Part shown: positions 3,053 through 19,166 of the stretch, one piece after another
Layout of the letters: every line of letters begins with the position of its first letter
How positions within the stretch are numbered: the stretch's first letter is position 1
Virus record (IMG/VR): IMGVR_UViG_3300017792_000001
Location: 168,697-232,696 of that record
Length of the DNA: 64,000 bases
From: a virus
Lineage: Duplodnaviria; Heunggongvirae; Uroviricota; Caudoviricetes
Reading direction: 5' to 3' (one strand)
Translations under genes and position numbers: made by a program
Notes under the pieces: generated by a model
Told to the model about the DNA's origin: nothing
Database searches by the model: none
The model's input: only the letters and a program-made list of their open reading frames with translations

Positions 3053-3784
3053 TCAGCTTTTAGCCGCAATGGCGCGCATGTAGTTGATTTCATACGCGCT
3101 GATTCCATAACGACGTGCTAGGGCTTCGGAATCCCCACCTTCGCGCATAGCTTCGCGATAAATCAAAGCCGTCTCAGAGGACAGGATATCATTCAGCCTT
3201 GCACGCTGTTTGTCGTTTAACGGACTACCCTTCAACTTGGCCAGGTCGGCGTTCAACTTCACCAGTGTGTTGCGGCTCGCCATCCAATTGCAGATGCGCT
3301 CCTTGATCACAGATTGGTGGGTCGCACGCGGCAACTGGTAGATGAAGGTCATCAGTTGATTTAGCAAGGTACGCTGGGCTTTGACTTCATCCACTGACAT
3401 TTGAACAATGTCGAATCCCGTGCGGGTTAAGGCCTGGAACTCTAGTTCCTCAAAGTCGAGTTTAAGCGGCAAGCACTTGAACCCGTCAATGTGGAGGTCT
3501 GCACCGATTTTGAAATCCATGTGCTTGAAGTTATAGCCCGACAATGCGATTGGCGTATCGAACACCAAGAAGATCACATTGTCGAAGCTCTTGTCATAGC
3601 TCACGTTTCGGCGCAAGTCCTTAACGCTGAAAAACACCACAAACTCAACCTGCTTTGGCTTTCTTTTTGGCAGGAGCGCGTCTGGCGTTAGCATCAGCAC
3701 TTGGCTTCGCTTTACCTTTCTTTCCTTGTTTAGCCTCACCAGAACTTCGTCCGGGGCGTGGCAACCGAAACTTGCTACTTTCAT
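3053..3784 (-). CDS. Hypothetical protein, possibly HolA(delta)-like clamp-loader accessory subunit
   Basis: 243 aa ORF with GGAG RBS; the function is suggested only by context and the C-terminal LARRYGISAY motif. Confidence 0.55.
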   Translation of the reverse strand: MKVASFGCHAPDEVLVRLNKERKVKRSQVLMLTPDALLPKRKPKQVEFVVFFSVKDLRRNVSYDKSFDNVIFLVFDTPIALSGYNFKHMDFKIGADLHIDGFKCLPLKLDFEELEFQALTRTGFDIVQMSVDEVKAQRTLLNQLMTFIYQLPRATHQSVIKERICNWMASRNTLVKLNADLAKLKGSPLNDKQRARLNDILSSETALIYREAMREGGDSEALARRYGISAYEINYMRAIAAKS

Positions 3785-6083
3785 CGTCGCTCTCCACTAC
3801 TTTAGACACGCCACCTTTCTTCGTCACCGTGATGTAATGGCACTCGCTGTACAAATGCTTGCTCAGCGGAGTTACCAGAAACACGTGTGGCACTAGAGTG
3901 CGCAATGCTGGAATAAACCGTTCAACGAACAGGGAGCGAGTGGTATCGTCCATGTGGCTGTCTGGTTCATCAAGCACGCAGAAGTTGGTACGGCGATCAT
4001 CTTCAACCATGACTAGCATCACCCACATCCAGAGTAGGCGGAAGCAGTCAGACTCAGCACCAGACAACAGGCGCACGTCAGATTCTTTGCCGTTCCCTCG
4101 ATCAACTCGGCAATGCACACCATCTTCTTTGGCGAACAGAGTGAACTTGAAAGGTTCGGCGAATATCAGGTTGGAGTAGCGGTTCATGAGTTGTTCGATC
4201 TGGAACAACACACCGTTTGCAGCCGTGATCTTCAAACCCTTGGCGCTGTAGCCTTTCTCCAGGGACTTGAACATATCACGTTGAGCGATGATTGGCTTAA
4301 TGAGCTCCAGTTTCTCCAGTGCGTCCTTACGTTCGCGTCGGAGTACCTTATACTCACTGGCCTTTGAGCCAAGATTGGAACAGATGTCTTGCGCCTTCGT
4401 GTAACGGCGTTCGATTTTCTTGTACCGAGCTTGAGCGTCACTCAGTTTATTAGACAACGAAACAGCATCAATGGTTCCGTGCTGATTTTCGAGTGATTCC
4501 AAAACGCTATCAATGCGCTGAATCTCGGAATGCGCTTCGAAGATTTCCTCCAGTTGATCCAGTGAATACTTCGGCTCGACGATAACCTTCTCGGGAGCTT
4601 TCAACTTGGACAAACGGGTGGTCAGCTTTTCAACCTGTGTTGCGGCTTCAAACTGGCTTTCGAGTTTGTCGAAGGTGTCACTGTCAGCCGCGTACTGCTT
4701 ACGGCGCTCAACAAAGGCAGCATCGTCAAACTTGATCTTCTTGTCACGCACGCGCACGTAGGCTAACGCCGCATCAAACTGCTCAATGTGGGTTTCCAGC
4801 TTGTCGATGGCTTTCTCTGCCTTCTTGATGTGCTTGCGGATCTTGTCAATCTCGACCTGCTGCATACAAGTTGGGCATTCACCATCGGTGCAGTCATGCA
4901 GAATGGACTTGAGTTGCAGTACGGCTTTATGCTGCACCAGCTCCTCTTCCTGACGACCCTTACCGAACGCAACGGCTACCGGTGCATCTTTACGCTTGAG
5001 ACCAACAGCTTCACACGCGAGTGCCAGTTCTTCCTTGCGCTTCTCCAGAGACTTCCACTCTTGACGGACTTCGTGCAACTCCGTGAGGGCCTTTTCTTCT
5101 GCCTTCAGGTGAGCATTCAGCGCCTTGAGTTTCTTCTTGAGTACAGCGATAGGCTTGGTCTTGCCGAGTTCTTCAACCTGCTGCTCCAGTTGTTTCTTCT
5201 GGGCTTTGTAGGTCTTGAGTTCGGACTGGTATTCTTCCATGTCGCGATGCCACTTGCGTTCTTCCTTTGCACGCTTCAGGTCGATCGGTGGCTTGAGCTT
5301 CTTGCGCTTCGCTTTCAGCTTGTCGTACTGCTCGACAATTGCCAATGCAGCCTTGTATTTCTGGATCTTCGATTGCAGGGTCTTGCTGTCACCACCGAGA
5401 GTCTTGATGACCTCACGGGCTTCGTCCAGCTCTGCCGCACTTTCTTTAGACCAAGCGAGACGTTCCAACAAGCCGTTGATCTTCACCAACTGTTGGTTGA
5501 GGACGTCAAACTCTACCTGCTTGTTCTTAATCTCACCGAGCTTCTTGGTGAAATACTTCTTGAGCTGGTCGTATACGTCCAGACGGAAGATGGAGGTGAT
5601 GTACTGTAGTCGCGCTGCTGGCTTGTCGATCTGGAAGTTCAGAGGACGTTGGCTTTGCAGGTAGACGTAGGAGTAAAATTCTTCTTCGGTGATAGGAAAA
5701 ATCTCGGCAATCTTCGTCTTTTGTAACGGGATCGTCCGAGATTCTATGTCTTTGCCATCTTCTTCAATAACGAACTTGGAACTTGTTTGAGTGATGCTGT
5801 ACGGAACATTGTTGTTCCCCACAAACGCCATCTTAATGCGCGCGGCCGCAGACGTGAGCATATCTTTCTTGCTCTTGGTCTGCGCGAGCGGAGTCGCTTC
5901 ATAACGAAGGTTCGGAATGGACGACAGCAACAGACTTTTACCAGCACCGTTGCTCGTCTCACTCGAAATGCGGCTGTCCTCATTGTGACCACTGATCACG
6001 GTAAAAGGATGCCGGTCTACTGCAAGTCGCACTTTCTTGAAGAGGACGACATTATCCAGCTCAATGTCGGTCACTCTCAGCAT
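3645..6083 (-). CDS. sbcC: SbcC/Rad50-like SMC ATPase
   Basis: Walker A SNGAGKS, coiled coils, zinc hook CPTC, signature LSGAE, Walker B VLDEP. Confidence 0.93.
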   Translation of the reverse strand: MLRVTDIELDNVVLFKKVRLAVDRHPFTVISGHNEDSRISSETSNGAGKSLLLSSIPNLRYEATPLAQTKSKKDMLTSAAARIKMAFVGNNNVPYSITQTSSKFVIEEDGKDIESRTIPLQKTKIAEIFPITEEEFYSYVYLQSQRPLNFQIDKPAARLQYITSIFRLDVYDQLKKYFTKKLGEIKNKQVEFDVLNQQLVKINGLLERLAWSKESAAELDEAREVIKTLGGDSKTLQSKIQKYKAALAIVEQYDKLKAKRKKLKPPIDLKRAKEERKWHRDMEEYQSELKTYKAQKKQLEQQVEELGKTKPIAVLKKKLKALNAHLKAEEKALTELHEVRQEWKSLEKRKEELALACEAVGLKRKDAPVAVAFGKGRQEEELVQHKAVLQLKSILHDCTDGECPTCMQQVEIDKIRKHIKKAEKAIDKLETHIEQFDAALAYVRVRDKKIKFDDAAFVERRKQYAADSDTFDKLESQFEAATQVEKLTTRLSKLKAPEKVIVEPKYSLDQLEEIFEAHSEIQRIDSVLESLENQHGTIDAVSLSNKLSDAQARYKKIERRYTKAQDICSNLGSKASEYKVLRRERKDALEKLELIKPIIAQRDMFKSLEKGYSAKGLKITAANGVLFQIEQLMNRYSNLIFAEPFKFTLFAKEDGVHCRVDRGNGKESDVRLLSGAESDCFRLLWMWVMLVMVEDDRRTNFCVLDEPDSHMDDTTRSLFVERFIPALRTLVPHVFLVTPLSKHLYSECHYITVTKKGGVSKVVESDDESSKFRLPRPGRSSGEAKQGKKGKAKPSADANARRAPAKKKAKAG

Positions 6084-6089
6084 GTTTGA

Positions 6090-7238
6090 TTATTCCGAAT
6101 GGTCGATGATGAACTTGCCCATGTGGGTTTGCAGCAAGACGGCTTCGTCAATTGCGCAACTGTTCATGGCGAGCTCCACGTTGTTGACTACTTCCTGGAG
6201 CAGGATCAGGACTTTCAAGTTGAACTTGATTTCCATCTTCTGTGCAACCGATTCGAACACACGACCGGCGTACGGCGTGAACTTGGCGGTCTTGGTCTTC
6301 GAACCAATGAGGTAGTCGAGCAACATGCGGCTCTTGTACACGATGCCGCGCGGGTTCTGCGCTTTGCGGATGATCGAGATACAGCCCGGCAGGTCACGAT
6401 TGAGTGCGGCTGCAATAACGCTGGCGCAGGCTTTGTCCAGATCAACGGCAGCAGACTCGACGTAGTGCGCGAGTGCGCCCTTCTCTTTCAGGTTCAGTTC
6501 ACCAGACGCTGCGGCGTACATCAGCTTTTCGAGGATCGCCAGGCCGCCACGAACACTACCGTCAGAGAACTGGGCGATCAGCTTGATGGCTTTGGCGCCG
6601 TCTTTACTGTCGATGAACTTCATGCCTTCCAGTTCTGCAACCTGCGTCAGGCGCTTAGCAATCTGTTCTGGTTCGACAGTCTTGAGCGTGATGGTTGTGC
6701 AACGGTCGACGATGGTCTTGAGCAACTTCTCTGGGTTGGTGGTACCAAGAATCCAGATTGTGTGCGGGCTGGGTTCTTCCAGTGGAACCAGAAGCGCCTC
6801 GGCCGACGCACCTGTGAGCTTGTGGGCTTCGTCAACGAAGATGATCCGGTAGTTGGTCATCGGCGCAGAACGACTGCCTTTGATCACGGTACGGATATCT
6901 TCGACTTTACCCTGGGTTGCAGCGTTGATCGTCGTGATGTCCGGGTGCTTTTCGCCCAGCTTGTACGCCATGGAGTCCTTGACGTTCTTGGGATCATCGG
7001 CGTTCATGTACGCAGCAAGAATCCTGGCGAGTGTGGTCTTACCGCAACCAGTGGCACCGCTGAGTAGGATCGCACCAGGGAACTTGCGAGTCTTGATCAT
7101 GCCTTTGATTACGGCGACTTCTTGCTCGTTACCGACCACGTCTTTCAGAGTACGCGGTCGATACTTAACGGCGAGTGACAGCGTTGCAGATGCTGTCTCC
7201 TCAACCTTCTCCTTTTTCGGTTTATCTTTCTTCGCCAC
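6090..7238 (-). CDS. dnaX: DNA polymerase III gamma-like clamp loader ATPase
   Basis: KYRPRTLKDVVG, GATGCGKTT, IIFVDEAHKL, LEEP, TTNPEKL, DGSVR. Confidence 0.92.
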   Translation of the reverse strand: MAKKDKPKKEKVEETASATLSLAVKYRPRTLKDVVGNEQEVAVIKGMIKTRKFPGAILLSGATGCGKTTLARILAAYMNADDPKNVKDSMAYKLGEKHPDITTINAATQGKVEDIRTVIKGSRSAPMTNYRIIFVDEAHKLTGASAEALLVPLEEPSPHTIWILGTTNPEKLLKTIVDRCTTITLKTVEPEQIAKRLTQVAELEGMKFIDSKDGAKAIKLIAQFSDGSVRGGLAILEKLMYAAASGELNLKEKGALAHYVESAAVDLDKACASVIAAALNRDLPGCISIIRKAQNPRGIVYKSRMLLDYLIGSKTKTAKFTPYAGRVFESVAQKMEIKFNLKVLILLQEVVNNVELAMNSCAIDEAVLLQTHMGKFIIDHSE

Positions 7239-7240
7239 GA

Positions 7241-7786
7241 TTAGAGCTCCGTGTCATCTTTAAAGAAGTGGTAGGCCATCGGATACAGAGTGGCCTCGAT
7301 CTGGTGCAGACTGGTATATTCGAACTTTACAGTACCAATGCTCAACGGGAAGCACATGATACCGTGACCGCCAACTTCTTTGGCAGCATTGTAGACGCGA
7401 CGCAGATCGTTGAAGAACTTCTGGAGCGCTTCAATCGGATACGCACGACCATCAAGCCGAGCGTATTGGAAATTCATTGCACAGATGGTGTCAGTGAGCG
7501 CAACGACACGGTTAGCCTGTCTGCGAGACTTGACTAGCAGTGCGTCACGGTCAGCCTGATCAAACTCACCGCGTACCAGCACACGACCACGCGGTTGAAT
7601 ATCAAACTGCTCGATGATGTGCGGCGTGGTATTCACAGAGAGCACGATGCCTGTCTTCTGTGTGCCGAATGCTTCAACGCGTTCCAAGTAAAACTTATCG
7701 AAACGCACCTGCTTTTGTGGATAAGTGCCGAGAGTGGCGATTGGTCGGATTGCGGACATTGCTTTCAGCGTGGACAGGTCAAACAT
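7241..7786 (-). CDS. Hypothetical protein
   Basis: 181 aa ORF packed in the operon. Confidence 0.7.
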   Translation of the reverse strand: MFDLSTLKAMSAIRPIATLGTYPQKQVRFDKFYLERVEAFGTQKTGIVLSVNTTPHIIEQFDIQPRGRVLVRGEFDQADRDALLVKSRRQANRVVALTDTICAMNFQYARLDGRAYPIEALQKFFNDLRRVYNAAKEVGGHGIMCFPLSIGTVKFEYTSLHQIEATLYPMAYHFFKDDTEL

Positions 7787-7797
7787 GATGTTCTCTC

Positions 7798-8436
7798 TTA
7801 GAGCGGTCGTCGCATGTGCGGACCGTTATCGTAGGCGTTGATGCCGTAGACCTCGAAGCCCAGCTCAGTCGCGTAGTTGAACACGGCCTGGGATTCGGCG
7901 GCAATCATTGGTGTCTCGTTGTCGAGTGGACGTGACAGGCTGATCAGCCCGAAGATGTAGTACGGCTTCTGGCGCCAGCTACCTGCGTTTGCGCCTTCAA
8001 CAACAGGCTTACCGTTTTCGTCGTATGGTGCACGCACTTCAATCGACACCCACTTCGCGTCGGTATCAACGTCGGCAAGCCACGCGAGTCTGTAGTCGAG
8101 CAAGGCTTTATAGATTCCCTGCTTCTGGTGACTCGGGTTAACGAACGCGCCGCAGAGTTCCCAGTTCTTCTCCAGGAGTTCAACACGGTGCGTGGTAGTG
8201 CTGTAGTACGGGCTGTCTTCGTGCAGCACCAATGAGCCCATGCCCACGATCACGTCATCGACTACAGCAACCCAGGTACGGCGCTTCTCGTGGTTGAGCG
8301 CTTTGCCCAGAAGGTACAACTGGTGTTCGAGGTTGTGCTGCATACTCGACAGGCCGTCTGCTTCCCGCATCATGTGCAGGAGAGCGCGCAGTCCAGGTGC
8401 TTCGAGGTCTTGAGGCTTGAGTTCGCGAATGTCCAT
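7798..8436 (-). CDS. GNAT family acetyltransferase
   Basis: WVAVVDDVIVGMG; acetyl-CoA motif A FVNPSHQKQGIYKALL; LGFEVYG. Confidence 0.8.
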   Translation of the reverse strand: MDIRELKPQDLEAPGLRALLHMMREADGLSSMQHNLEHQLYLLGKALNHEKRRTWVAVVDDVIVGMGSLVLHEDSPYYSTTTHRVELLEKNWELCGAFVNPSHQKQGIYKALLDYRLAWLADVDTDAKWVSIEVRAPYDENGKPVVEGANAGSWRQKPYYIFGLISLSRPLDNETPMIAAESQAVFNYATELGFEVYGINAYDNGPHMRRPL

Positions 8437-8438
8437 GA

Positions 8439-9296
8439 TTACTTCCGTTTTTTCTTGGGCAACGGCGGCGCTTCGAGCTGGCCGCTGATCACACGGTTGT
8501 AGATACCGACGACAGACTTGCCGCCATGTGCGTTCCAGACTGGGTCTTCGAGCAGTGCTTCAAAGTGCCCAGCAATACCGCTGTCACCCTTGTGCATGTC
8601 GGTGTGATTGAAAATCTTCACCTGCTCCAAGTAGTCAGCGAACTGGGTACGAATCGGCTGCTTCTGCTTCGGCTTGTTCACGTCATCCCAGCTTGTGCCG
8701 ATGAATTCGTTGAGCATGCCACGAGTGACCCACGGGCTGATCCATTCACGACCCAGGCTGCGGCAATACTTCTTCAACTTGGAAGTCTGGGAAGTAGGGC
8801 CGATCACCTTGTTGAACTTCGGAATGCGGTAGTCGTCGATGCAGTCGCGGTAGTGCATACAGCCAGTCTTCGACAGAGCGAAGTAGATGTCGGCTGCAAG
8901 GCCGCCAGTCATCGAATGCTCTTTGCCTTGGTCGATGCAACGGCGAATAGCCCAGAACGCTTCGACTTCAACCTTGCTGCGGGTCTGGAGCAGATCAACG
9001 TTCGCTACCATGTCGCGCTTGAGCGTATCAAGGCAGCGAGGCAGCAGCACAGGCGAGAACGGAATGCCGAAGACTTGAGCGGTGTTGCGCGCTGATTTGA
9101 AGTCACGGCTCTCGTGGTCTTCCATCGTCACACTGTAGATCGTGATGTCTTTCGGCTTGTGCCCAAGTTCCAGCAGGGAGAACAGTACGGCATGGCTGTC
9201 GAGTCCGCCGGACATCAGGACCCCAAAGGGCCCGTCATGTTTCTCCAGGTTCTTCATCAAAGCCATCTTGATGTTGGGTTTAATGATCTTTCCCAC
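8439..9296 (-). CDS. Asparagine-synthetase-like ATP pyrophosphatase (synthetase domain only)
   Basis: PP-loop SGGLDS; GGLAADIYF resembles GEGADE; SPW resembles the xPF motif; no N-terminal glutaminase domain. Confidence 0.75.
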   Translation of the reverse strand: MGKIIKPNIKMALMKNLEKHDGPFGVLMSGGLDSHAVLFSLLELGHKPKDITIYSVTMEDHESRDFKSARNTAQVFGIPFSPVLLPRCLDTLKRDMVANVDLLQTRSKVEVEAFWAIRRCIDQGKEHSMTGGLAADIYFALSKTGCMHYRDCIDDYRIPKFNKVIGPTSQTSKLKKYCRSLGREWISPWVTRGMLNEFIGTSWDDVNKPKQKQPIRTQFADYLEQVKIFNHTDMHKGDSGIAGHFEALLEDPVWNAHGGKSVVGIYNRVISGQLEAPPLPKKKRK

Positions 9297-9297
9297 G

Positions 9298-10371
9298 TTA
9301 CTGTCCTTTGATCTGGGTGAGTGTCTTGTCCATCAGCTTCACGATGTCACCGGTCATCTTGCGACCAGTCATGTGGAAGGCAAAACACTCGGCGAAGAAT
9401 TCTTCTGGCTTGGTGAGCGCGTACTCGGACGGGTCAGCTTTCGACTCGACGATCGTGGAGCGCTTCGGCCACATGCTGGCAAACTTCTCGCTGTCCTCAG
9501 AGAACAGAATGGCGAGTGACTTGCCGTCGAGCTTGTGGTACTTCTTGTAGTGCGCCAGAACTTCTTTGAACACGCTCTTGGACTCGTCGTCCAGTTCTTT
9601 CTGGAAGTCGCGCATATCGCCGTCTTGATAGCCCAGCAATTCGTCAAGCAGAGACTCCAGGCGCTCTTTCAGGAAGTTGGTCAGTTCGATGCGCTTGTGA
9701 AACATCTTGATCCAGCGCGCCTTGGTACGCGACTCGACCATCTTGTACCAGACAGCATGACCGTATTCGTGATACAGCAGGTACTCGTTCCACTGTGCGT
9801 CTTCAAACGTCTCAGGGAACAGGTCAACCTTGTCGCTGATTTCAGAACCCTTGCGGCGAATCTCGTACATGCCCGCGTACTTGCCACGCTTCGGATAGAC
9901 GCGCATAGCAGTGAACGGGAACACGTCGAGACTGGTTTCGATCATCTGCGCGTAGGTAGACTTCAAGGCTTTCTTGAAGGACTTCATTTCGCGTTCATTC
10001 AGTTCGCGATAGAAGTGGATCGGGCCGTACTTGGTTTCCACCGAGCTGATGTACGGGTTGATCTTCACACCGTATGCAGAGCCAGGCTTTGGCTTGGTGC
10101 CGAGAACTGCAACGAGGTTCTGTTCGTCGAACTCGATGGTCTTCGGTTCGTCGTCGATCAGCGTTGAGTCAATGACTGCACGGCCGCGTTCTGGGTTGAT
10201 CGCCAGACACAGGAAGTTCTTGGTGCCGACCTTGACAATGATGTAGCTGTCTTTCTCGACAGGCATACCACGACCGATCTCGCGGGTCTTCTGCTTCTTG
10301 AGTTTCGGAGCATCGCCGCTTACGTCGATCTTGGCCTTGTCTTTCTTCTTGAGTTTCTTTTCCTTAGCCAT
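9298..10371 (-). CDS. Zincin-like metallopeptidase-domain protein
   Basis: HEYGH plus downstream SEYALTKPEEFFAECF (anthrax-LF-like third-ligand motif). Confidence 0.7.
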   Translation of the reverse strand: MAKEKKLKKKDKAKIDVSGDAPKLKKQKTREIGRGMPVEKDSYIIVKVGTKNFLCLAINPERGRAVIDSTLIDDEPKTIEFDEQNLVAVLGTKPKPGSAYGVKINPYISSVETKYGPIHFYRELNEREMKSFKKALKSTYAQMIETSLDVFPFTAMRVYPKRGKYAGMYEIRRKGSEISDKVDLFPETFEDAQWNEYLLYHEYGHAVWYKMVESRTKARWIKMFHKRIELTNFLKERLESLLDELLGYQDGDMRDFQKELDDESKSVFKEVLAHYKKYHKLDGKSLAILFSEDSEKFASMWPKRSTIVESKADPSEYALTKPEEFFAECFAFHMTGRKMTGDIVKLMDKTLTQIKGQ

Positions 10372-11009
10372 CAGTCACGCGCTCCGCCGACACTGACAAT
10401 ACCGTAGTAACCCAGGCTGCCCGGGATGAACATTTGGTTGTCGAATTTAGGATAGTCAGGCAGTGGGTTCTGACTGTAGATGACATCGACGCCGTTGCCA
10501 GCAGGCATGCGCAGGGTTTTGATGCCCCACTTGTACGACTCAAACTCCAGCTTCAACACGGCGAAACGTGGATCAACCGTGGTCTGCTGAATGGCCTTGT
10601 TGATGATGTAATCACGGATGCCACGACCGCGACTGACAAACTCGTCGAACATATCGTCAGCCTTGATGCAGCCAGATGCGAAGCCTTCTTCTGGCATAGA
10701 CTCCCAGGCGAGATACACACAGACTGCCATCTGGTCTACCATGGTGCCTTCGAAGTAGGTCTCGGTAGCAGTGGCGACCATATCGCAGAAGGTCTTTTCG
10801 TCTTCGGTGAGTTCACGGCCTTCCGGCGGACGCTCATAGCCCATCGCCTTGCATTCGAATGCTTGCTCGTCGAACACCTTACGCAGGTTGTCCTTGTACG
10901 GATTGGTCTTCTGCGGGAACAGTTCGTTCCAGGCTTGACGCACGTACCAGTCCGGATCATCTTTGACAACGAACTGGGTGTATTTTGGAATAGTCATGGT
11001 CATGTTCAT
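10371..11009 (-). CDS. Hypothetical protein
   Basis: 212 aa ORF overlapping both neighbours. Confidence 0.7.
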   Translation of the reverse strand: MNMTMTIPKYTQFVVKDDPDWYVRQAWNELFPQKTNPYKDNLRKVFDEQAFECKAMGYERPPEGRELTEDEKTFCDMVATATETYFEGTMVDQMAVCVYLAWESMPEEGFASGCIKADDMFDEFVSRGRGIRDYIINKAIQQTTVDPRFAVLKLEFESYKWGIKTLRMPAGNGVDVIYSQNPLPDYPKFDNQMFIPGSLGYYGIVSVGGARD

Positions 11010-12526
11010 TTACCTTTGAGCAGGCCTAGGCCCTTCGATGGTTTGCGTTTACAGTTGGCGAACCCGTGCTTGAGATAATCTTCAAGCGTCCAAGTGCCAC
11101 CCTTTGCCCACAACCAGATCGGTTCAATCGAAGCGCCTTCTTTGCCTTCGAGAGCACCCGACTGTGGGCGTTTGGCGAGACGCAACCCAATGCAACCAAG
11201 ATAGCGAGCACCCTTGAGCGTGCCGATATAGTCGTTCATTGGGTCGCAGATTTCACCACGCTCCATCGTGTCGTTGTTGTAGATGTCGGCGATGTTCATG
11301 GCGAGAATACCACCACGATCGCCCTCGTCTGTCAGCGCATCCCACGAGTTCTTCAGGGACGGGAACAGGAAGCCTTCGAGCCACGCGTCAATCTCACCGA
11401 ACTTGCGGAACGATTGGCCTGGGTCGTCGCTGTACTGCTCAGCGTTGAAGTACGGCGGGCTGGTGAACACGGTATCGACCTTGTACCCGTAGCGCTTGCG
11501 CATACCCTTCGGCAGTTCAGAGCCGTGGCAGTGCATTTCAATCTCTTGGCCCTTCTGACGATAGCGCTTGACCTCGGCAGCATAGCCCTCGTACAGGCTG
11601 CTGTTAGGGTCAGTCGAGCAATAGAACTCGGCGCCTTTGGTTGCCATGAAGCCAGCAACACGGTCGCCCCACCCAGAAGAAGGATCGTACACCCGTTTCG
11701 CGTTGAACAGTTCGTAGAAGCAACGTGCGGCAAGTGGCTTGAACTGACTGGCGATGTACTTGCGCATCGACAACGTGGTACGGAATTCAGGGTTACCGAT
11801 GACCTTGTACTTGAGAGTCCACAATGCGTTGAGCATGGACATCATGTACTTGTCACCGTGCCAAACTCGATACGGCGAAGGGATGCCTTTGTAGTCGCAC
11901 TTCCACCGGTTCTCTTGGTGGTAGTAGTTCGATGCCTCGTTGCCAGTACGCGGTGCGTCGATCACGATGTCGCTGATTGCATAGCGGTAATCCCAACGAG
12001 TGACAGTCGGCATCCGCTTGATCAGCTTCGATACGTCAAACTCCTGAATCTGTTTGAACGCAGCATCGGCTTCACGCAGACTGATTGGCTGCATCGGCGC
12101 AGGCATTTCGTAATGACGAATCGCCTTGATGATCGCTTCTTTGATCGTGCCCTTGTCGAAGTGCTCATTCAAGTCACGCCAGAGTTTGGCATTGATCTTG
12201 ATTTCACCATTCTTCACCAGCTCGTGGATATTGATTTCACCACTTGCTGCTTTGGCCTTCGACTTCACAAGACCCAGGCCGGCCGGCATTGCTTTGACGT
12301 GCTGTGCAGGTTTCAGATCAGACCAGCGCTTCGACATCACAATCCAGCGAATGGTCTTGGGGTGCACGCCGTAGTGGGCGCCAGCTTTCTTGCAAAACTT
12401 CTTGTGCTGCTCTGGGTCTTTCTGGCAGCCGCCTTCTTTCCAACGCTTGCGCAGTTTCATGGCGAGCGTGTGGTCGAACTTGGATAGCTCAGGGCGCAAA
12501 ACTTCTTCGAGAGTAGGGACGGTCAT
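11006..12526 (-). CDS. SAM-dependent DNA amino-methyltransferase-fold protein
   Basis: SAM motif YDPSSGWGDR and catalytic FTSPPYF. Confidence 0.8.
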   Translation of the reverse strand: MTVPTLEEVLRPELSKFDHTLAMKLRKRWKEGGCQKDPEQHKKFCKKAGAHYGVHPKTIRWIVMSKRWSDLKPAQHVKAMPAGLGLVKSKAKAASGEINIHELVKNGEIKINAKLWRDLNEHFDKGTIKEAIIKAIRHYEMPAPMQPISLREADAAFKQIQEFDVSKLIKRMPTVTRWDYRYAISDIVIDAPRTGNEASNYYHQENRWKCDYKGIPSPYRVWHGDKYMMSMLNALWTLKYKVIGNPEFRTTLSMRKYIASQFKPLAARCFYELFNAKRVYDPSSGWGDRVAGFMATKGAEFYCSTDPNSSLYEGYAAEVKRYRQKGQEIEMHCHGSELPKGMRKRYGYKVDTVFTSPPYFNAEQYSDDPGQSFRKFGEIDAWLEGFLFPSLKNSWDALTDEGDRGGILAMNIADIYNNDTMERGEICDPMNDYIGTLKGARYLGCIGLRLAKRPQSGALEGKEGASIEPIWLWAKGGTWTLEDYLKHGFANCKRKPSKGLGLLKGK

Positions 12527-12534
12527 GTTGTTTC

Positions 12535-13341
12535 CTACAGGAACGTATATTCGCCGCCGAGATTCCAGAACAGAGTCTTCTTGCGGCGCATAATGTCGGT
12601 GTTTTCAGTCAACCAGTGCCAGGCTTTCATATCCCAGAATTGGTTGCACGGGAAAGGCGCAGGGTCAACCTTCGGCATCACGTCGCTGAATTCATACGGC
12701 GAGTGGACGATGGTGACGTTATCGAGTGGGATCTTCCACTGCGTCATGGTCTTGGTGATCGCGCCCTCAGAGGACACACAGATCGTGTATACTTTACCCT
12801 TTGGGTTTAGCGACAGGAAAGCCTTGGCAAGTCCAGAGACTGTCACGCCAGCACCGCTACTGATCACCAGGTTGTCGATGTGCCCGAGTTCTGCAAACGT
12901 TTCACGAAAGCGGCGGGCCATCGGGTTCAGATACCATGGAGTACCGAACGCATACGGCAGCATCTGGAACCCACGCTCGTCACCCATGTTCTTCGCTTGC
13001 GCATATAGCACGCGCATCATGTTGTGACGAATGGGGATCAGCTCGCCACCATTCTTGGTGATGTTGTGCAGGTATTCTTCTTTGATCTTCTTGGTGATCG
13101 GATGCACGATGTGGACTTCGTGCTTCTTCGCGAGCTTCGACAGCGCCCAACCGGACCACGAACCGAAGACGTTCAAGTGAATGATCGGCTTGTTCGGATC
13201 CATCTTGGTGAGCACTTCTTTGATGGCGTGCAGCTTTGCCCATGGCGGCAGCGTCTTGTTGTCACCCATCAGGTCGTCACGCTTCACCAGAACTTCGTGG
13301 CGGCCAATCTTGTACGTTTCAATCGGAGTGTCGAGTCTCAT
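12535..13341 (-). CDS. PLP-dependent fold-type II enzyme (ACC deaminase/D-Cys desulfhydrase-like)
   Basis: VKRDDL...WAK (PLP lysine), SSGAGVTVSG phosphate loop, C-terminal LFWNLG. Confidence 0.8.
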   Translation of the reverse strand: MRLDTPIETYKIGRHEVLVKRDDLMGDNKTLPPWAKLHAIKEVLTKMDPNKPIIHLNVFGSWSGWALSKLAKKHEVHIVHPITKKIKEEYLHNITKNGGELIPIRHNMMRVLYAQAKNMGDERGFQMLPYAFGTPWYLNPMARRFRETFAELGHIDNLVISSGAGVTVSGLAKAFLSLNPKGKVYTICVSSEGAITKTMTQWKIPLDNVTIVHSPYEFSDVMPKVDPAPFPCNQFWDMKAWHWLTENTDIMRRKKTLFWNLGGEYTFL

Positions 13342-14078
13342 TTCTTTTCCTTGCGTGCGTATGCGGTCATGTACGACAGCAGTTCGTTACCCTGTTGGGC
13401 TTCTTCACCGCTGTAGAAGTTGTGCGCTGACGTGGCATGCAAGGTCAACGTACCCATTTTCATACCGCTGCGCTCTGCGATATAGGTACCAAGGTCACAC
13501 AGAGCTTTGATGTCCGCATATCCCGCTTTGCCGAAACGCATTGAGCGGAAGAACGCGGTAACGTCGAGCTCCTTGTTGCGCGGCTTGATGTCTACTGACG
13601 ACAAGCACGGCACACCGCCCATGACTTTCTTTGAGTCACTGGTCGGGTCGTACACGGCAATGGAAATCATCTTGGTGTTCTTGCCGTTGCTCAGCTTCTT
13701 GATGGCTGCTTCGATCTGGTTGACTTCACCACCGAACGCGATCATGCGCCCCCAGTAGCTGTTCGTCCACTTCGCTTTCGGATCGTTCTGCTCATACGAC
13801 CAGACACCGAGCATGTTCTTCTTGGGCTGCACGAACGTCACGGATGCGGCGTAGTCGATACGCTCGTCGCCGTAGACATTGCGGAACTCACTGTCGAAGA
13901 ACTTGTTGGTCTTGCCGGTCATTGCGAAGTTGTCACGCAGCACCATGATCAGGTTTGGAATCTCTTGGATCCCGCTGATCTTGATACCGTCGCGTTTGAT
14001 CTTGCCATACGTCTTGCACCACAGGGATGCAATCGAGTTGGCTTCAATGATTGTCGCCATTGTTCTTTTCCTGTTCAT
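13338..14078 (-). CDS. Thymidylate synthase/dCMP hydroxymethylase family protein
   Basis: YWGR, catalytic PC, FRS, Asp at the Asn177-equivalent position, SAHNFY. Confidence 0.78.
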   Translation of the reverse strand: MNRKRTMATIIEANSIASLWCKTYGKIKRDGIKISGIQEIPNLIMVLRDNFAMTGKTNKFFDSEFRNVYGDERIDYAASVTFVQPKKNMLGVWSYEQNDPKAKWTNSYWGRMIAFGGEVNQIEAAIKKLSNGKNTKMISIAVYDPTSDSKKVMGGVPCLSSVDIKPRNKELDVTAFFRSMRFGKAGYADIKALCDLGTYIAERSGMKMGTLTLHATSAHNFYSGEEAQQGNELLSYMTAYARKEKK

Positions 14079-14499
14079 GCTTCATTACGGGAGACTCTGG
14101 CGAATACTTCTTCTTACCGTAGTCGAAGCCAATTTCCTTGAAGAAGGCAGGCATCCCGTCGATGCGAATGATTGGGTGCAGATTCTTGTAGACAAGCATC
14201 TGGCTGCCGTCTTCTGGTTCCGCAGGCAGTGTCTTGCCAGCCTCTTTCATCTGCTCGACGAAGATGGTCTGGACGCAACCGAAGTCGTCGTCAAACAAAT
14301 GCACCTTGTACCAGATCTTGTCGTTACAATTGCGGATCTTGTTACCTGGAGCAAACGCGCGGTGAATCTCGTGGTGGCGAAACCCTTCGCGATGCTGAAT
14401 TGACCTGCGTGCACCAGTGTCGCACATTTCGGCGACGGTAACTTTGAAGACGCGCTTCACCACATGCCCATGCTGTTCGAAGATAAGGATGTCTCTCAT
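14044..14499 (-). CDS. Hypothetical protein
   Basis: 151 aa ORF in the operon. Confidence 0.6.
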   Translation of the reverse strand: MRDILIFEQHGHVVKRVFKVTVAEMCDTGARRSIQHREGFRHHEIHRAFAPGNKIRNCNDKIWYKVHLFDDDFGCVQTIFVEQMKEAGKTLPAEPEDGSQMLVYKNLHPIIRIDGMPAFFKEIGFDYGKKKYSPESPVMKHEQEKNNGDNH

Positions 14500-14909
14500 T
14501 AGCGCGGCTCCAGATCGTCGATGTCAATGTCGAAGACGTGCGAGCACAACGGCGCCAGCTTCTTCACCATCTTCGCGTGTCGCTTTTCGAGGTAGCGATT
14601 GCGGCTTTCGAGTTCGCCTTCACCTGTTTCGTAGATGCGCAAAGCTGTCTGCTGCATTTCTTCGGTGACGTGCTGTTGATTACCCGTGGCATGCCACGAA
14701 TGACCGATCAACTGCCAGAACTGAGCCACGTCATCTTTTGTGACTTCTGGTACAGTTGAGAGAAAGGTAAATGGATCGACACCCATAGACAGGAGTTTCT
14801 GATACAGTGCTTCGACAGCATTGTTCTGACTGTAGCGCAACGTGCCGTGTTCGTCTTTGCACAGACGCTGCATCGGATGCTTCGGGATCGGATCGGCTTT
14901 GCTTTTCAT
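14499..14909 (-). CDS. Hypothetical phage protein
   Basis: Start probably 14909 (GGAG RBS, ATGA overlap); HPMQR...FWQLIG. Confidence 0.65.
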   Translation of the reverse strand: MKSKADPIPKHPMQRLCKDEHGTLRYSQNNAVEALYQKLLSMGVDPFTFLSTVPEVTKDDVAQFWQLIGHSWHATGNQQHVTEEMQQTALRIYETGEGELESRNRYLEKRHAKMVKKLAPLCSHVFDIDIDDLEPR

Positions 14910-15133
14910 TTGCCTGCTCCAGGAATCTGGTAGCACGACACGCCGACACCATCACTTGCAGAGACGACGAGGCACTCGATGCCAGCACGCGGAGAGACGA
15001 CACGATCCTGCACCGATGCAGCACTCAGCCAGCGTACCATAAAACCGATGGCAACAACGACTGCGATGCAGATGGCGATCAGACCTGCGTAGATCAGCAG
15101 ATCCTGAAACTTGCTCTTGGATTTAAGTGCCAT
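14906..15133 (-). CDS. Small membrane protein
   Basis: 75 aa with one hydrophobic helix. Confidence 0.65.
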   Translation of the reverse strand: MALKSKSKFQDLLIYAGLIAICIAVVVAIGFMVRWLSAASVQDRVVSPRAGIECLVVSASDGVGVSCYQIPGAGK

Positions 15134-18762: not shown

Positions 18763-18838
18763 TGGTGGGTCGTGCAGGATTCGAACCTGCGACCAATTGG
18801 TTAAAAGCCAACTGCTCTACCAACTGAGCTAACGACCC
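18763..18838 (-). tRNA. tRNA-Lys(UUU)
   Basis: GGGTCGTTAGCTCAGTTGGTAGAGCAGTTGGCTTTTAACCAATTGGTCGCAGGTTCGAATCCTGCACGACCCACCA; full cloverleaf with CCA. Confidence 0.96.
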
Positions 18839-18847
18839 GAACGAGCA

Positions 18848-18919
18848 GGGTCCGTACAAGTTTCCCTGTCAATGCTAAGCAGTCTCACGCACGAAGGCTT
18901 GCTGCTCAACACCGGACCC
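18848..18919 (-). ncRNA. Structured three-way-junction RNA between tRNAs
   Basis: GGGTCCG/CGGACCC closing stem, an 11-bp helix with G-U pairs, and ACAGG-GAAA-CTTGT. Confidence 0.5.
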
Positions 18920-18925
18920 ACAAAA

Positions 18926-19002
18926 TGGCGACACCGAAGGGACTCGAACCCTCGACCCCTAGCGTGACAGGCTAGTGCTCTAACCAACTGAGCTACGGCG
19001 TC
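18926..19002 (-). tRNA. tRNA-Asp(GUC)
   Basis: GACGCCGTAGCTCAGTTGGTTAGAGCACTAGCCTGTCACGCTAGGGGTCGAGGGTTCGAGTCCCTTCGGTGTCGCCA. Confidence 0.95.
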
Positions 19003-19006
19003 TAAA

Positions 19007-19083
19007 TGGTAGGACGTCTGGGATTCGAACCCAGGACCAATGGCTTAAAAGGCCACTGCTCTGACCAACTGAGCTAACGTCCT
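19007..19083 (-). tRNA. tRNA-Lys(UUU), second divergent copy
   Basis: AGGACGTTAGCTCAGTTGGTCAGAGCAGTGGCCTTTTAAGCCATTGGTCCTGGGTTCGAATCCCAGACGTCCTACCA. Confidence 0.95.
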
Positions 19084-19089
19084 ATGAAA

Positions 19090-19166
19090 GGTGGGAACAA
19101 GAGGAATCGAACCTCCATCAGAATGCGACGCGCGCAAACTGCTCTGCCAATATGAGCTACGTTCCC
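19090..19166 (-). tRNA. tRNA-like gene with aberrant anticodon arm (pseudo-tRNA)
   Basis: Good acceptor (GGGAACG/TGTTCCC), D and T arms; anticodon arm non-canonical; ends ACCT. Confidence 0.6.

Follow-up and report, generated by a model that had tools for sequence, protein, structure and literature searches.

We analysed a 64,000-nucleotide stretch of a Caudoviricetes genome (positions 168,697 to 232,696 of IMG/VR virus record IMGVR_UViG_3300017792_000001; hereafter the window), in which a row of minus-strand genes carries a core module of four proteins: a thymidylate synthase (TS)-like enzyme, a fold-type II pyridoxal phosphate (PLP) enzyme, an SPPY methyltransferase (MTase)-fold protein that we call MT506, and an AMP-forming ligase resembling asparagine synthetase. 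This module is most likely a new arrangement within phage DNA base hypermodification that combines parts of three known pathways, and we found no published description of the gene combination in the literature. It has one enzyme family each from the CmoA/CmoX/CmoY and the thymidine pathways, while its closest TS structure comes from the 5-hydroxy-dCMP (deoxycytidine monophosphate) synthases. The proteins are likely to form a joint pathway that hypermodifies the phage's own DNA. Such a role on modified bases is supported because the PLP enzyme and the ligase are homologous to enzymes that act in vitro on modified DNA bases (PMC8989533; PMC12783734). With somewhat less confidence, we favour cytosine as the target and an amide-bearing end product.

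The TS-like enzyme probably acts on C5 of dCMP. Its open reading frame encodes 246 aa, and the called gene, starting at Met7, 240 aa. The Pro-Cys nucleophile and the Arg-Ser phosphate pair are retained and, together with Asp183, are invariant in an alignment of 21 homologues. In alignments, Asp183 coincides with an Asp in 9iqu and MilA, and with an Asn in ThyA and in the TS of Methanobacterium virus PhiF1; all 21 of the 21 family members have Asp in the column of E. coli ThyA Asn177, a column that holds Asn in the PhiF1 TS and in the canonical ThyA of this phage. The ThyA D169 column holds Arg in the window protein and Arg, Ala or Pro across the family, and the L143 column holds an invariant Gly. 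A search of the AlphaFold2 (AF2) model (mean predicted local distance difference test, pLDDT, 91.4) gave as the closest predicted match 9iqc, a riboflavin/flavin adenine dinucleotide (FAD)-dependent monooxygenase bound to dCMP (Z 20.0, root-mean-square deviation 2.8, 203 residues), followed by MilA (Z 17.9), ThyA (up to 17.1) and T4 dCMP hydroxymethylase (13.2). In phmmer searches of the PDB sequences, the TS-like enzyme and MT506 both returned chance matches only, of the ribosomal protein S3 and PsbU type.

The flavin-dependent 5-hydroxy-dCMP synthases of RB69, DLP3 and HY126, which lead to arabinosyl-5-hydroxycytosine and were described in 2026, carry the signature N177D, L143E and D169N (PMC13326640). 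Since only N177D of this signature is present, the TS-like enzyme stands on a cytosine-type branch of its own within the TS family, with a product that is not readable from sequence. The subfamily turned up solely beside module genes. Two plainer identities were rejected. The enzyme is not the ordinary thymidylate synthase of the phage, because a canonical ThyA is kept separately (G000:C1:118772-119968, plus strand; PF00303, 245 bits; Asn at 177 and Asp at 169) and the window protein has Asp at the specificity site. Nor is it a plain methanogen-type TS: it scored 88.8 bits against TIGR03283, below the cut-off of 174.55, and the PhiF1 TS retains Asn177 and Asp169. The canonical ThyA gene itself has one in-frame TAG (119486-119488) within a conserved stretch, which could be a sequencing error, a mark of a pseudogene or a site of read-through. 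A complex prediction for the TS-like and PLP enzymes scored 0.00, which is evidence neither way.

The PLP enzyme matched YuA gp11 over its full length (27% identity, E 1e-20), and the two have the C-terminal motif PFPCNxF(W/Y)DxKAWxWL in common. Lys36 is invariant in 25 homologues, aligns with a lysine of YuA gp11 and corresponds to Lys36 of M6 gp52, which has been proposed as the Schiff-base lysine (PMC8989533). M6 gp52 decarboxylates C-alpha-glycinylthymidine in DNA, and the characterised members of this family, from M6 and ViI, are decarboxylases (PMC8989533). In YuA, the gp11 gene lies between the aGPT-Pplase and radical S-adenosylmethionine (SAM) genes of an M6-type cluster. The cellular fold-II enzymes in the PDB (cysteine synthase, ACC deaminase) were distant from the window enzyme.

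The ligase consists of a synthetase domain only, lacks a glutaminase domain and carries the PP-loop SGGLDS. Over nearly the full length it shares 27% identity with the CmoY of S-B43 (E 3e-26), and it is 33% identical to gp306 of Pseudomonas phage PaBG. When 21 synthetase domains were placed in a tree, ligases without a glutaminase domain from loci with TS-like, PLP and MTase-fold genes were mixed with the CmoY proteins of CmoA/CmoX phages; the ligase of one related locus (L007; loci are cited by our L numbers) was sister to PaBG gp306 (100/99), and that of another (L098) was sister to S-B43 CmoY (96/99). This mixture argues for similar DNA-bound carboxylate substrates.

MT506 combines a class I fold with an N-terminal helical extension, and its invariant motifs are FxSPPY and the SAM loop D.S.GWG.R. 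A SAM loop and an (S/D/N)PP(Y/F) motif on a Rossmann MTase fold are features of N6/N4 amino-methyltransferases. The protein itself has no Pfam match, and most of its 954 homologues carry PF01555. Its AF2 model (pLDDT 85.8) gave the best predicted matches to TrmN (Z 15.5) and aTrm11 (14.9), both of them exocyclic-amine MTases. Genes of the MT506 family that stand alone (L012/L013, with positions 10600-10950 in L012; L101, 9106-9774; L014, 9106-9345) are found close to an AdoMet decarboxylase, immediately ahead of a SAM-lyase-family gene or alongside small ferredoxins, settings that may hint at unusual SAM chemistry in the family. A tandem paralogue is another neighbour of stand-alone genes.

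The core is widely conserved. Single-sequence scans of IMG/VR with the PLP or the TS-like protein gave no match and an alignment was required: with an alignment of PLP homologues we obtained 176 confirmed stretches, and analysed 80 loci plus four others. About 250 PLP homologues were found in assemblies. Co-occurrence was counted in those 45 loci where the sequence extends 5 kb or more to either side of the PLP gene; they fall into 15 clusters at 80% PLP identity. In 44 of them an MT506-family gene lay no more than 6 kb from the PLP gene, and a ligase was present in 42. The TS-like gene occurred in 31 of the 45 and a 2-hydroxyacid-dehydrogenase-like gene (269-292 aa) in 14; no locus had both and none had neither. 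This lack of co-occurrence led us to reject a scheme in which the two enzymes act in series. The exchange of one for the other was also seen within a single backbone (L044 versus L061, L068, L070 and L080). Examples of the either/or pattern include L009, L016, L028, L040, L044 and L065 versus L008, L030 and L070, and the ligase clade shifts alongside.

We distinguished three arrangements, with MT standing for the MT506-family gene. Type A has the order MT-TS-ligase-PLP beside ribonucleotide reductase (RNR) and PolB genes, with a ligase of about 500 aa that begins with the glutaminase start MCGI and whose gene overlaps the PLP gene. Type B, from T4-like phages, has the order MT-PLP-dehydrogenase-like-ligase and a ligase of about 477 aa (MCGF). 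Type C resembles the window in its glutaminase-less ligase and occurs in PaBG-like and other phages. The module thus sits on PolB, PolA, T4-like and PaBG-like backbones, often with overlapping gene ends. Close relatives of the window locus have the orders MT-TS-PLP-ligase-GNAT-peptidase (L006, a 220-kb contig) and MT-TS-PLP-ATP-grasp-ligase (L007), and the same core was found in the distant phages L008 (a 285-kb contig), L009 (T4-like) and L097 (PolA backbone). Because it recurs in dozens of unrelated phage contigs, the arrangement is not due to chance. In L007 an R2K-type ATP-grasp gene (L007:10849-11622; PF14243, PF18299) separates the PLP gene from the ligase gene, which suggests that this relative has a second step of amide formation. 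Among ten accessory proteins of related loci, Pfam named only a GH6 protein and an SMC-like ATPase.

A comparison with PaBG, whose backbone the phage shares, places the module at the site of a known type of pathway. In PaBG the order is ParB-like, CmoX gp309, CmoA gp308, gp307, CmoY gp306, gp305, peptidase gp304, gp303, clamp loader gp301 and SbcC gp300; gp309 is a C5-MTase homologue with a GSPPC motif (TIGR00675, 153 bits) and gp308 a CmoA homologue (TIGR00740, 130 bits). By tblastn, the genome of the window contains homologues of gp306 (the ligase), gp305 (a 212-aa protein, g212), gp304 and gp303. Across the whole 277.6-kb genome there was no match to CmoA gp308 at E 1e-3, and none to CmoX gp309, the ParB-like protein or gp307. 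Because homologues of gp306 and gp305 are present and those of CmoA and CmoX are not, the handle-installing pair was exchanged for the TS-like enzyme, the PLP enzyme and MT506, with the ligase and g212 kept and a GNAT acetyltransferase added. In another PaBG-like contig, two DUF723 genes (L103:855-1805 and 3168-4097) flank a CmoY-like gene; they are possibly homing endonucleases and may help explain cassette exchange at this site.

We then set the module against the four systems that it resembles most. In S-B43, CmoA makes carboxy-SAM, CmoX makes 5-carboxymethylcytosine (5cxmC) in DNA, and CmoY uses ATP to couple glycine to this base, giving a glycine amide (PMC12783734). The module shares with this pathway a homologous AMP-forming ligase, the PaBG site and cytosine as the likely target; however, the genome lacks CmoA and a C5-MTase-type CmoX and has the TS-like enzyme, the PLP enzyme and MT506 instead. 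With two of the three defining parts missing, the module falls outside the CmoA/CmoX/CmoY pathway. The thymidine hypermodifications of M6, ViI and PaMx11 (5-NedU, 5-NeOmdU and 5-AcNmdU; PMC8989533) likewise use a TS-family enzyme before replication, a PLP enzyme of the gp52/gp226 family and, in PaMx11, an acetyltransferase, but the window TS-like enzyme has Asp and not Asn at the base-specificity site, and the module has two further components, an amide ligase and a protein of MTase fold. Searches of the whole genome by tblastn with YuA gp12, gp13 and gp14, which include the 5-hydroxymethyluracil (5hmU) kinase and the radical-SAM protein, gave no match at E 0.1, and YuA gp10 (aGPT-Pplase) gave a marginal one (E 0.061). 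The module is therefore not the kinase/aGPT-Pplase thymidine pathway, whose defining parts it lacks.

The 5-hydroxy-dCMP synthases (PMC13326640; PDB 9iqc) provide the closest solved structure and share N177D and the loss of the folate-binding Asp169. They differ in that position 169 is Arg, Ala or Pro in the TS-like family and not Asn, that position 143 is Gly and not Glu, and that the module has no glycosyltransferase or sugar-nucleotide genes; with these residues and genes absent, it is not a 5-hydroxycytosine glycosylation pathway. The T4-type dCMP hydroxymethylase with glucosylation has in common with the module a TS homologue specific for cytosine, whose substrate would be the mononucleotide, but the structural match is weaker (Z 13.2), there is no acidic residue at 143 and no clear dCTPase, and tailoring would fall to the PLP enzyme, the ligase and the GNAT in place of glycosyltransferases. 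A preliminary description of this locus, made from the letters of the window, had pointed to a different and probably cytosine-based pathway in which an amino-acid-like adduct, possibly derived from SAM, undergoes PLP chemistry, amidation and acetylation, and had not recognised a 5hmU kinase or an aGPT-Pplase. Our searches agree on the missing kinase route, the Asp at the ThyA N177 position lends support to the cytosine basis, and the homologies to M6 gp52 and CmoY do the same for PLP chemistry and amidation on DNA. No result contradicts an adduct that is amino-acid-like and comes from SAM.

We propose a scheme of three steps. In the first, the TS-like enzyme would put an oxygen function, most likely 5-hydroxy or 5-hydroxymethyl, on C5 of dCMP before replication; its residues and fold make this somewhat more probable than not. 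The modified nucleotide would then be phosphorylated and incorporated, and a thymidylate-kinase-family gene of the phage (G000:C1:252642-253193) could phosphorylate the modified monophosphate. In the second step, the least certain of the three, a side chain with a free amino and a free carboxyl group would be attached to that cytosine in the DNA polymer. As the donor we tentatively prefer the 3-amino-3-carboxypropyl group of SAM, moved by MT506, because it would give the PLP enzyme, the ligase and the GNAT each a substrate with no need for carboxy-SAM or a kinase. Class I MTase folds such as Tyw2 and the aminopropyl transferases move the aminocarboxypropyl part of SAM. The alternatives at this step would be serine, attached by PLP beta-replacement, or a carboxymethyl group from host carboxy-SAM. 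In the third step, which is modelled on the characterised homologues and for which we see an even chance, the PLP enzyme would work on the alpha-amino acid end, the ligase would adenylate the carboxylate and form an amide, and the GNAT would acetylate the free amine. The final product would shield the DNA from host nucleases, and the module would functionally stand in for the CmoA/CmoX pair of the PaBG site.

On the most far-reaching reading, the product would be a previously undescribed amide-bearing, amino-acid-derived cytosine made without carboxy-SAM, a DNA kinase or an aGPT-Pplase, and it would arise through one of two reactions not known on DNA, either a transfer of the 3-amino-3-carboxypropyl group of SAM to a base by an amino-MTase fold or an alkylation of a base by a fold-II PLP enzyme; we regard such novelty as possible and rather doubtful. 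Under this reading the dCMP-modifying homologues of TS would gain a fourth functional class with the TS-like enzyme, and the strict either/or occurrence of its gene and the dehydrogenase-like gene would reflect two forms of the pathway that differ in their chemistry.

Several observations weigh against the scheme. The TS-like enzyme lacks the D169N and L143E residues of the proven 5-hydroxy-dCMP synthases, and a complete 134-kb type B genome has no TS-family gene, so that not all of the wider family has a C5 handle. Stand-alone relatives of MT506, 41-45% identical to it, are interleaved in the tree with the module-linked ones, and MT506 may for this reason be an ordinary N-methyltransferase; given its canonical amino-MTase motif, it may be an N4-cytosine or N6-adenine DNA methyltransferase that travels with the module. 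Read from the tree, ordinary methyl transfer would be argued for as much as an unusual transfer. The PLP enzyme and the ligase would compete for one carboxylate if the side chain has only one, and because decarboxylation and amidation would use the same group, the order and the roles given for the third step are provisional. No MazG and no dCMP deaminase were found in the genome, and the sole match to the dUTPase/dCTP-deaminase family is below threshold (20.7 bits versus 22), so full replacement of cytosine is not indicated.

In an alternative account the PLP enzyme would itself attach the amino acid: it would convert serine, O-acetylserine or O-phosphoserine into an aminoacrylate and join this to the hydroxyl or hydroxymethyl that the TS-like enzyme had placed on C5. 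The ligase would then amidate the alpha-carboxylate, the GNAT would acetylate the amine, and MT506 would only methylate. Beta-replacement is typical of fold-type II, cysteine synthases are the solved structures nearest to the PLP enzyme, this enzyme and the ligase receive sequential and non-competing roles, their genes overlap in type A loci, and a kinase or transferase becomes unnecessary. We nevertheless judge it unlikely, since the characterised members of this PLP family are decarboxylases only, beta-replacement onto DNA is without precedent, and both the type B loci, which have no TS-like gene, and the near-constant MT506 are left unexplained. The structural match of the TS-like model to the dCMP/FAD monooxygenase 9iqc and the lost folate-binding Asp169 would also suit a DNA analogue of tRNA cmo5U, in which the TS-like enzyme is a flavin-dependent dCMP 5-hydroxylase, MT506 loads the 5-hydroxyl with either a methyl group or a carboxymethyl group taken from carboxy-SAM of the host, and the ligase amidates the 5-carboxymethoxycytosine so formed. 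Relatives of the ligase act on 5-carboxymethylcytosine, and host carboxy-SAM can suffice, as CmoX alone gave 5cxmC in E. coli (PMC12783734). This account is quite improbable: it leaves the near-universal PLP enzyme without a role, the SPPY motif is typical of N- and not O-directed transfer, the D169N and L143E signature is absent, and there is no CmoA in the genome.

The genes could also be an island of independent functions, with a spare TS of nucleotide metabolism, an ordinary DNA methyltransferase and auxiliary amino-acid genes for an asparagine synthetase and a cysteine-synthase-like PLP enzyme. Type A ligases do exceed the cut-off of the AsnB equivalog TIGR01536 (296 versus 267 bits), type A loci lie amid RNR, thioredoxin and polymerase genes, and stand-alone MT506 relatives exist. 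Against this, the genes occur together in 15 clusters and on four types of replication backbone, their ends overlapping, the window ligase is free of a glutaminase domain and falls with CmoY, the PLP enzyme belongs with gp52 and not with cellular enzymes, and the phage has its separate canonical ThyA, all of which make such an island very unlikely. We therefore retain the joint pathway on cytosine, with aminocarboxypropyl transfer as its tentative second step.

Hypermodifications decide the access of restriction enzymes, CRISPR nucleases and sequencing or cloning enzymes to phage DNA, and they have supplied tools for epigenomics and DNA labelling. The module is common in uncultured phages, on jumbo and T4-like backbones among others, and, as it unites enzymes of three pathways that were discovered separately, gives direct access to a new cytosine derivative; new DNA-acting reactions may emerge from it, among them amidation, PLP chemistry and an unusual SAM-dependent transfer. 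The comparison with PaBG amounts to a natural experiment in which the handle-installing enzymes were swapped and the ligase was kept.

The genes of the row were assigned by Pfam, PHROG and NCBIfam and are listed in Table 1. The source virus record is complete (277,601 bp, with terminal repeats), and its backbone is of the PaBG type, with the gene order of the peptidase, clamp loader and SbcC kept. Megablast of positions 7000-15000 against 50,697 phage records gave no match. The row is co-directional and unbroken, and from the TS-like gene to SbcC adjacent ends overlap by 1-4 nt or stand 1-11 nt apart. The six proteins named in the preliminary description, its tightly packed ends and its SbcC and clamp-loader neighbours were all found where it had placed them. 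Its gene list had overlooked g212, and it had missed the CmoX-CmoA-CmoY genes of PaBG at the same site. It had also treated the six genes as one operon; the TS-like, PLP, MT506 and ligase genes are indeed co-conserved in many unrelated uncultured phages, whereas the zincin belongs to the backbone and the GNAT to one lineage.

Table 1. Genes of the minus-strand row, with window coordinates, basis of assignment and standing.
Feature	Position	Strand	Basis of assignment	Standing
SbcC	3645-6083	-	63% identical to PaBG gp300	flanking backbone
Clamp loader	6090-7238	-	67% identical to PaBG gp301	flanking backbone
g181	7241-7786	-	41% identical to PaBG gp303	flanking backbone
GNAT acetyltransferase	7798-8436	-	PF00583, E 1e-08	lineage-specific add-on
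Glutaminase-less Asn-synthetase-like AMP-forming ligase (CmoY homologue)	8439-9296	-	PF00733, E 1.2e-07	core
Zincin metallopeptidase	9298-10371	-	HEYGH motif; phrog_17197, E 3.7e-119; 66% identical to PaBG gp304	backbone gene
g212 (212 aa, fold unassigned)	10371-11009	-	PaBG gp305 homologue	lineage-specific companion
MT506, SPPY methyltransferase-fold protein	11006-12526	-	homologues carry PF01555	near-universal core companion
PLP fold-II enzyme (M6 gp52 / YuA gp11 family)	12535-13341	-	phrog_7093, E 9e-28; PF00291, 27 bits, below cut-off	core
TS-like enzyme	13338-14078	-	PF00303, 26.6 bits, above cut-off	core
g151	14044-14499	-		upstream of TS-like gene, ends overlapping
g145	14499-14936	-		upstream of g151

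Pfam, PHROG and NCBIfam gave no match for g212, which is 30% identical to PaBG gp305, the protein encoded after the CmoY homologue gp306. Its family has 16 representatives among 1.84 billion proteins, and a structure-atlas search gave no lead (scores below 0.8, TM below 0.4, a poor stored model). A g212-like gene follows the MT506 homologue in L104 (TS-PLP-MT-g212-like) and the ligase in PaBG and L103 (ASN-g212-like). The GNAT had no match in the 50,697 phage records; the one homologue found, with 220 aa and a match of 29% over 150 aa (E 3e-15), follows the ligase in L006, and the gene is a lineage-specific add-on confined to the closest relatives. The genes g151 and g145 matched neither a family nor any gene of the related loci, and are probably outside the module. 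Four tRNA genes, none of them a suppressor, lie at window positions 18763-19166. The zincin was rejected as a member of the pathway and stands outside the module, because it belongs to the backbone of jumbo phages of the PaBG, Lu11 and Erwinia types, occurs in 89 phage records and, in Erwinia Y3/Yoloswag-type phages, lies about 160 kb from the ligase gene.

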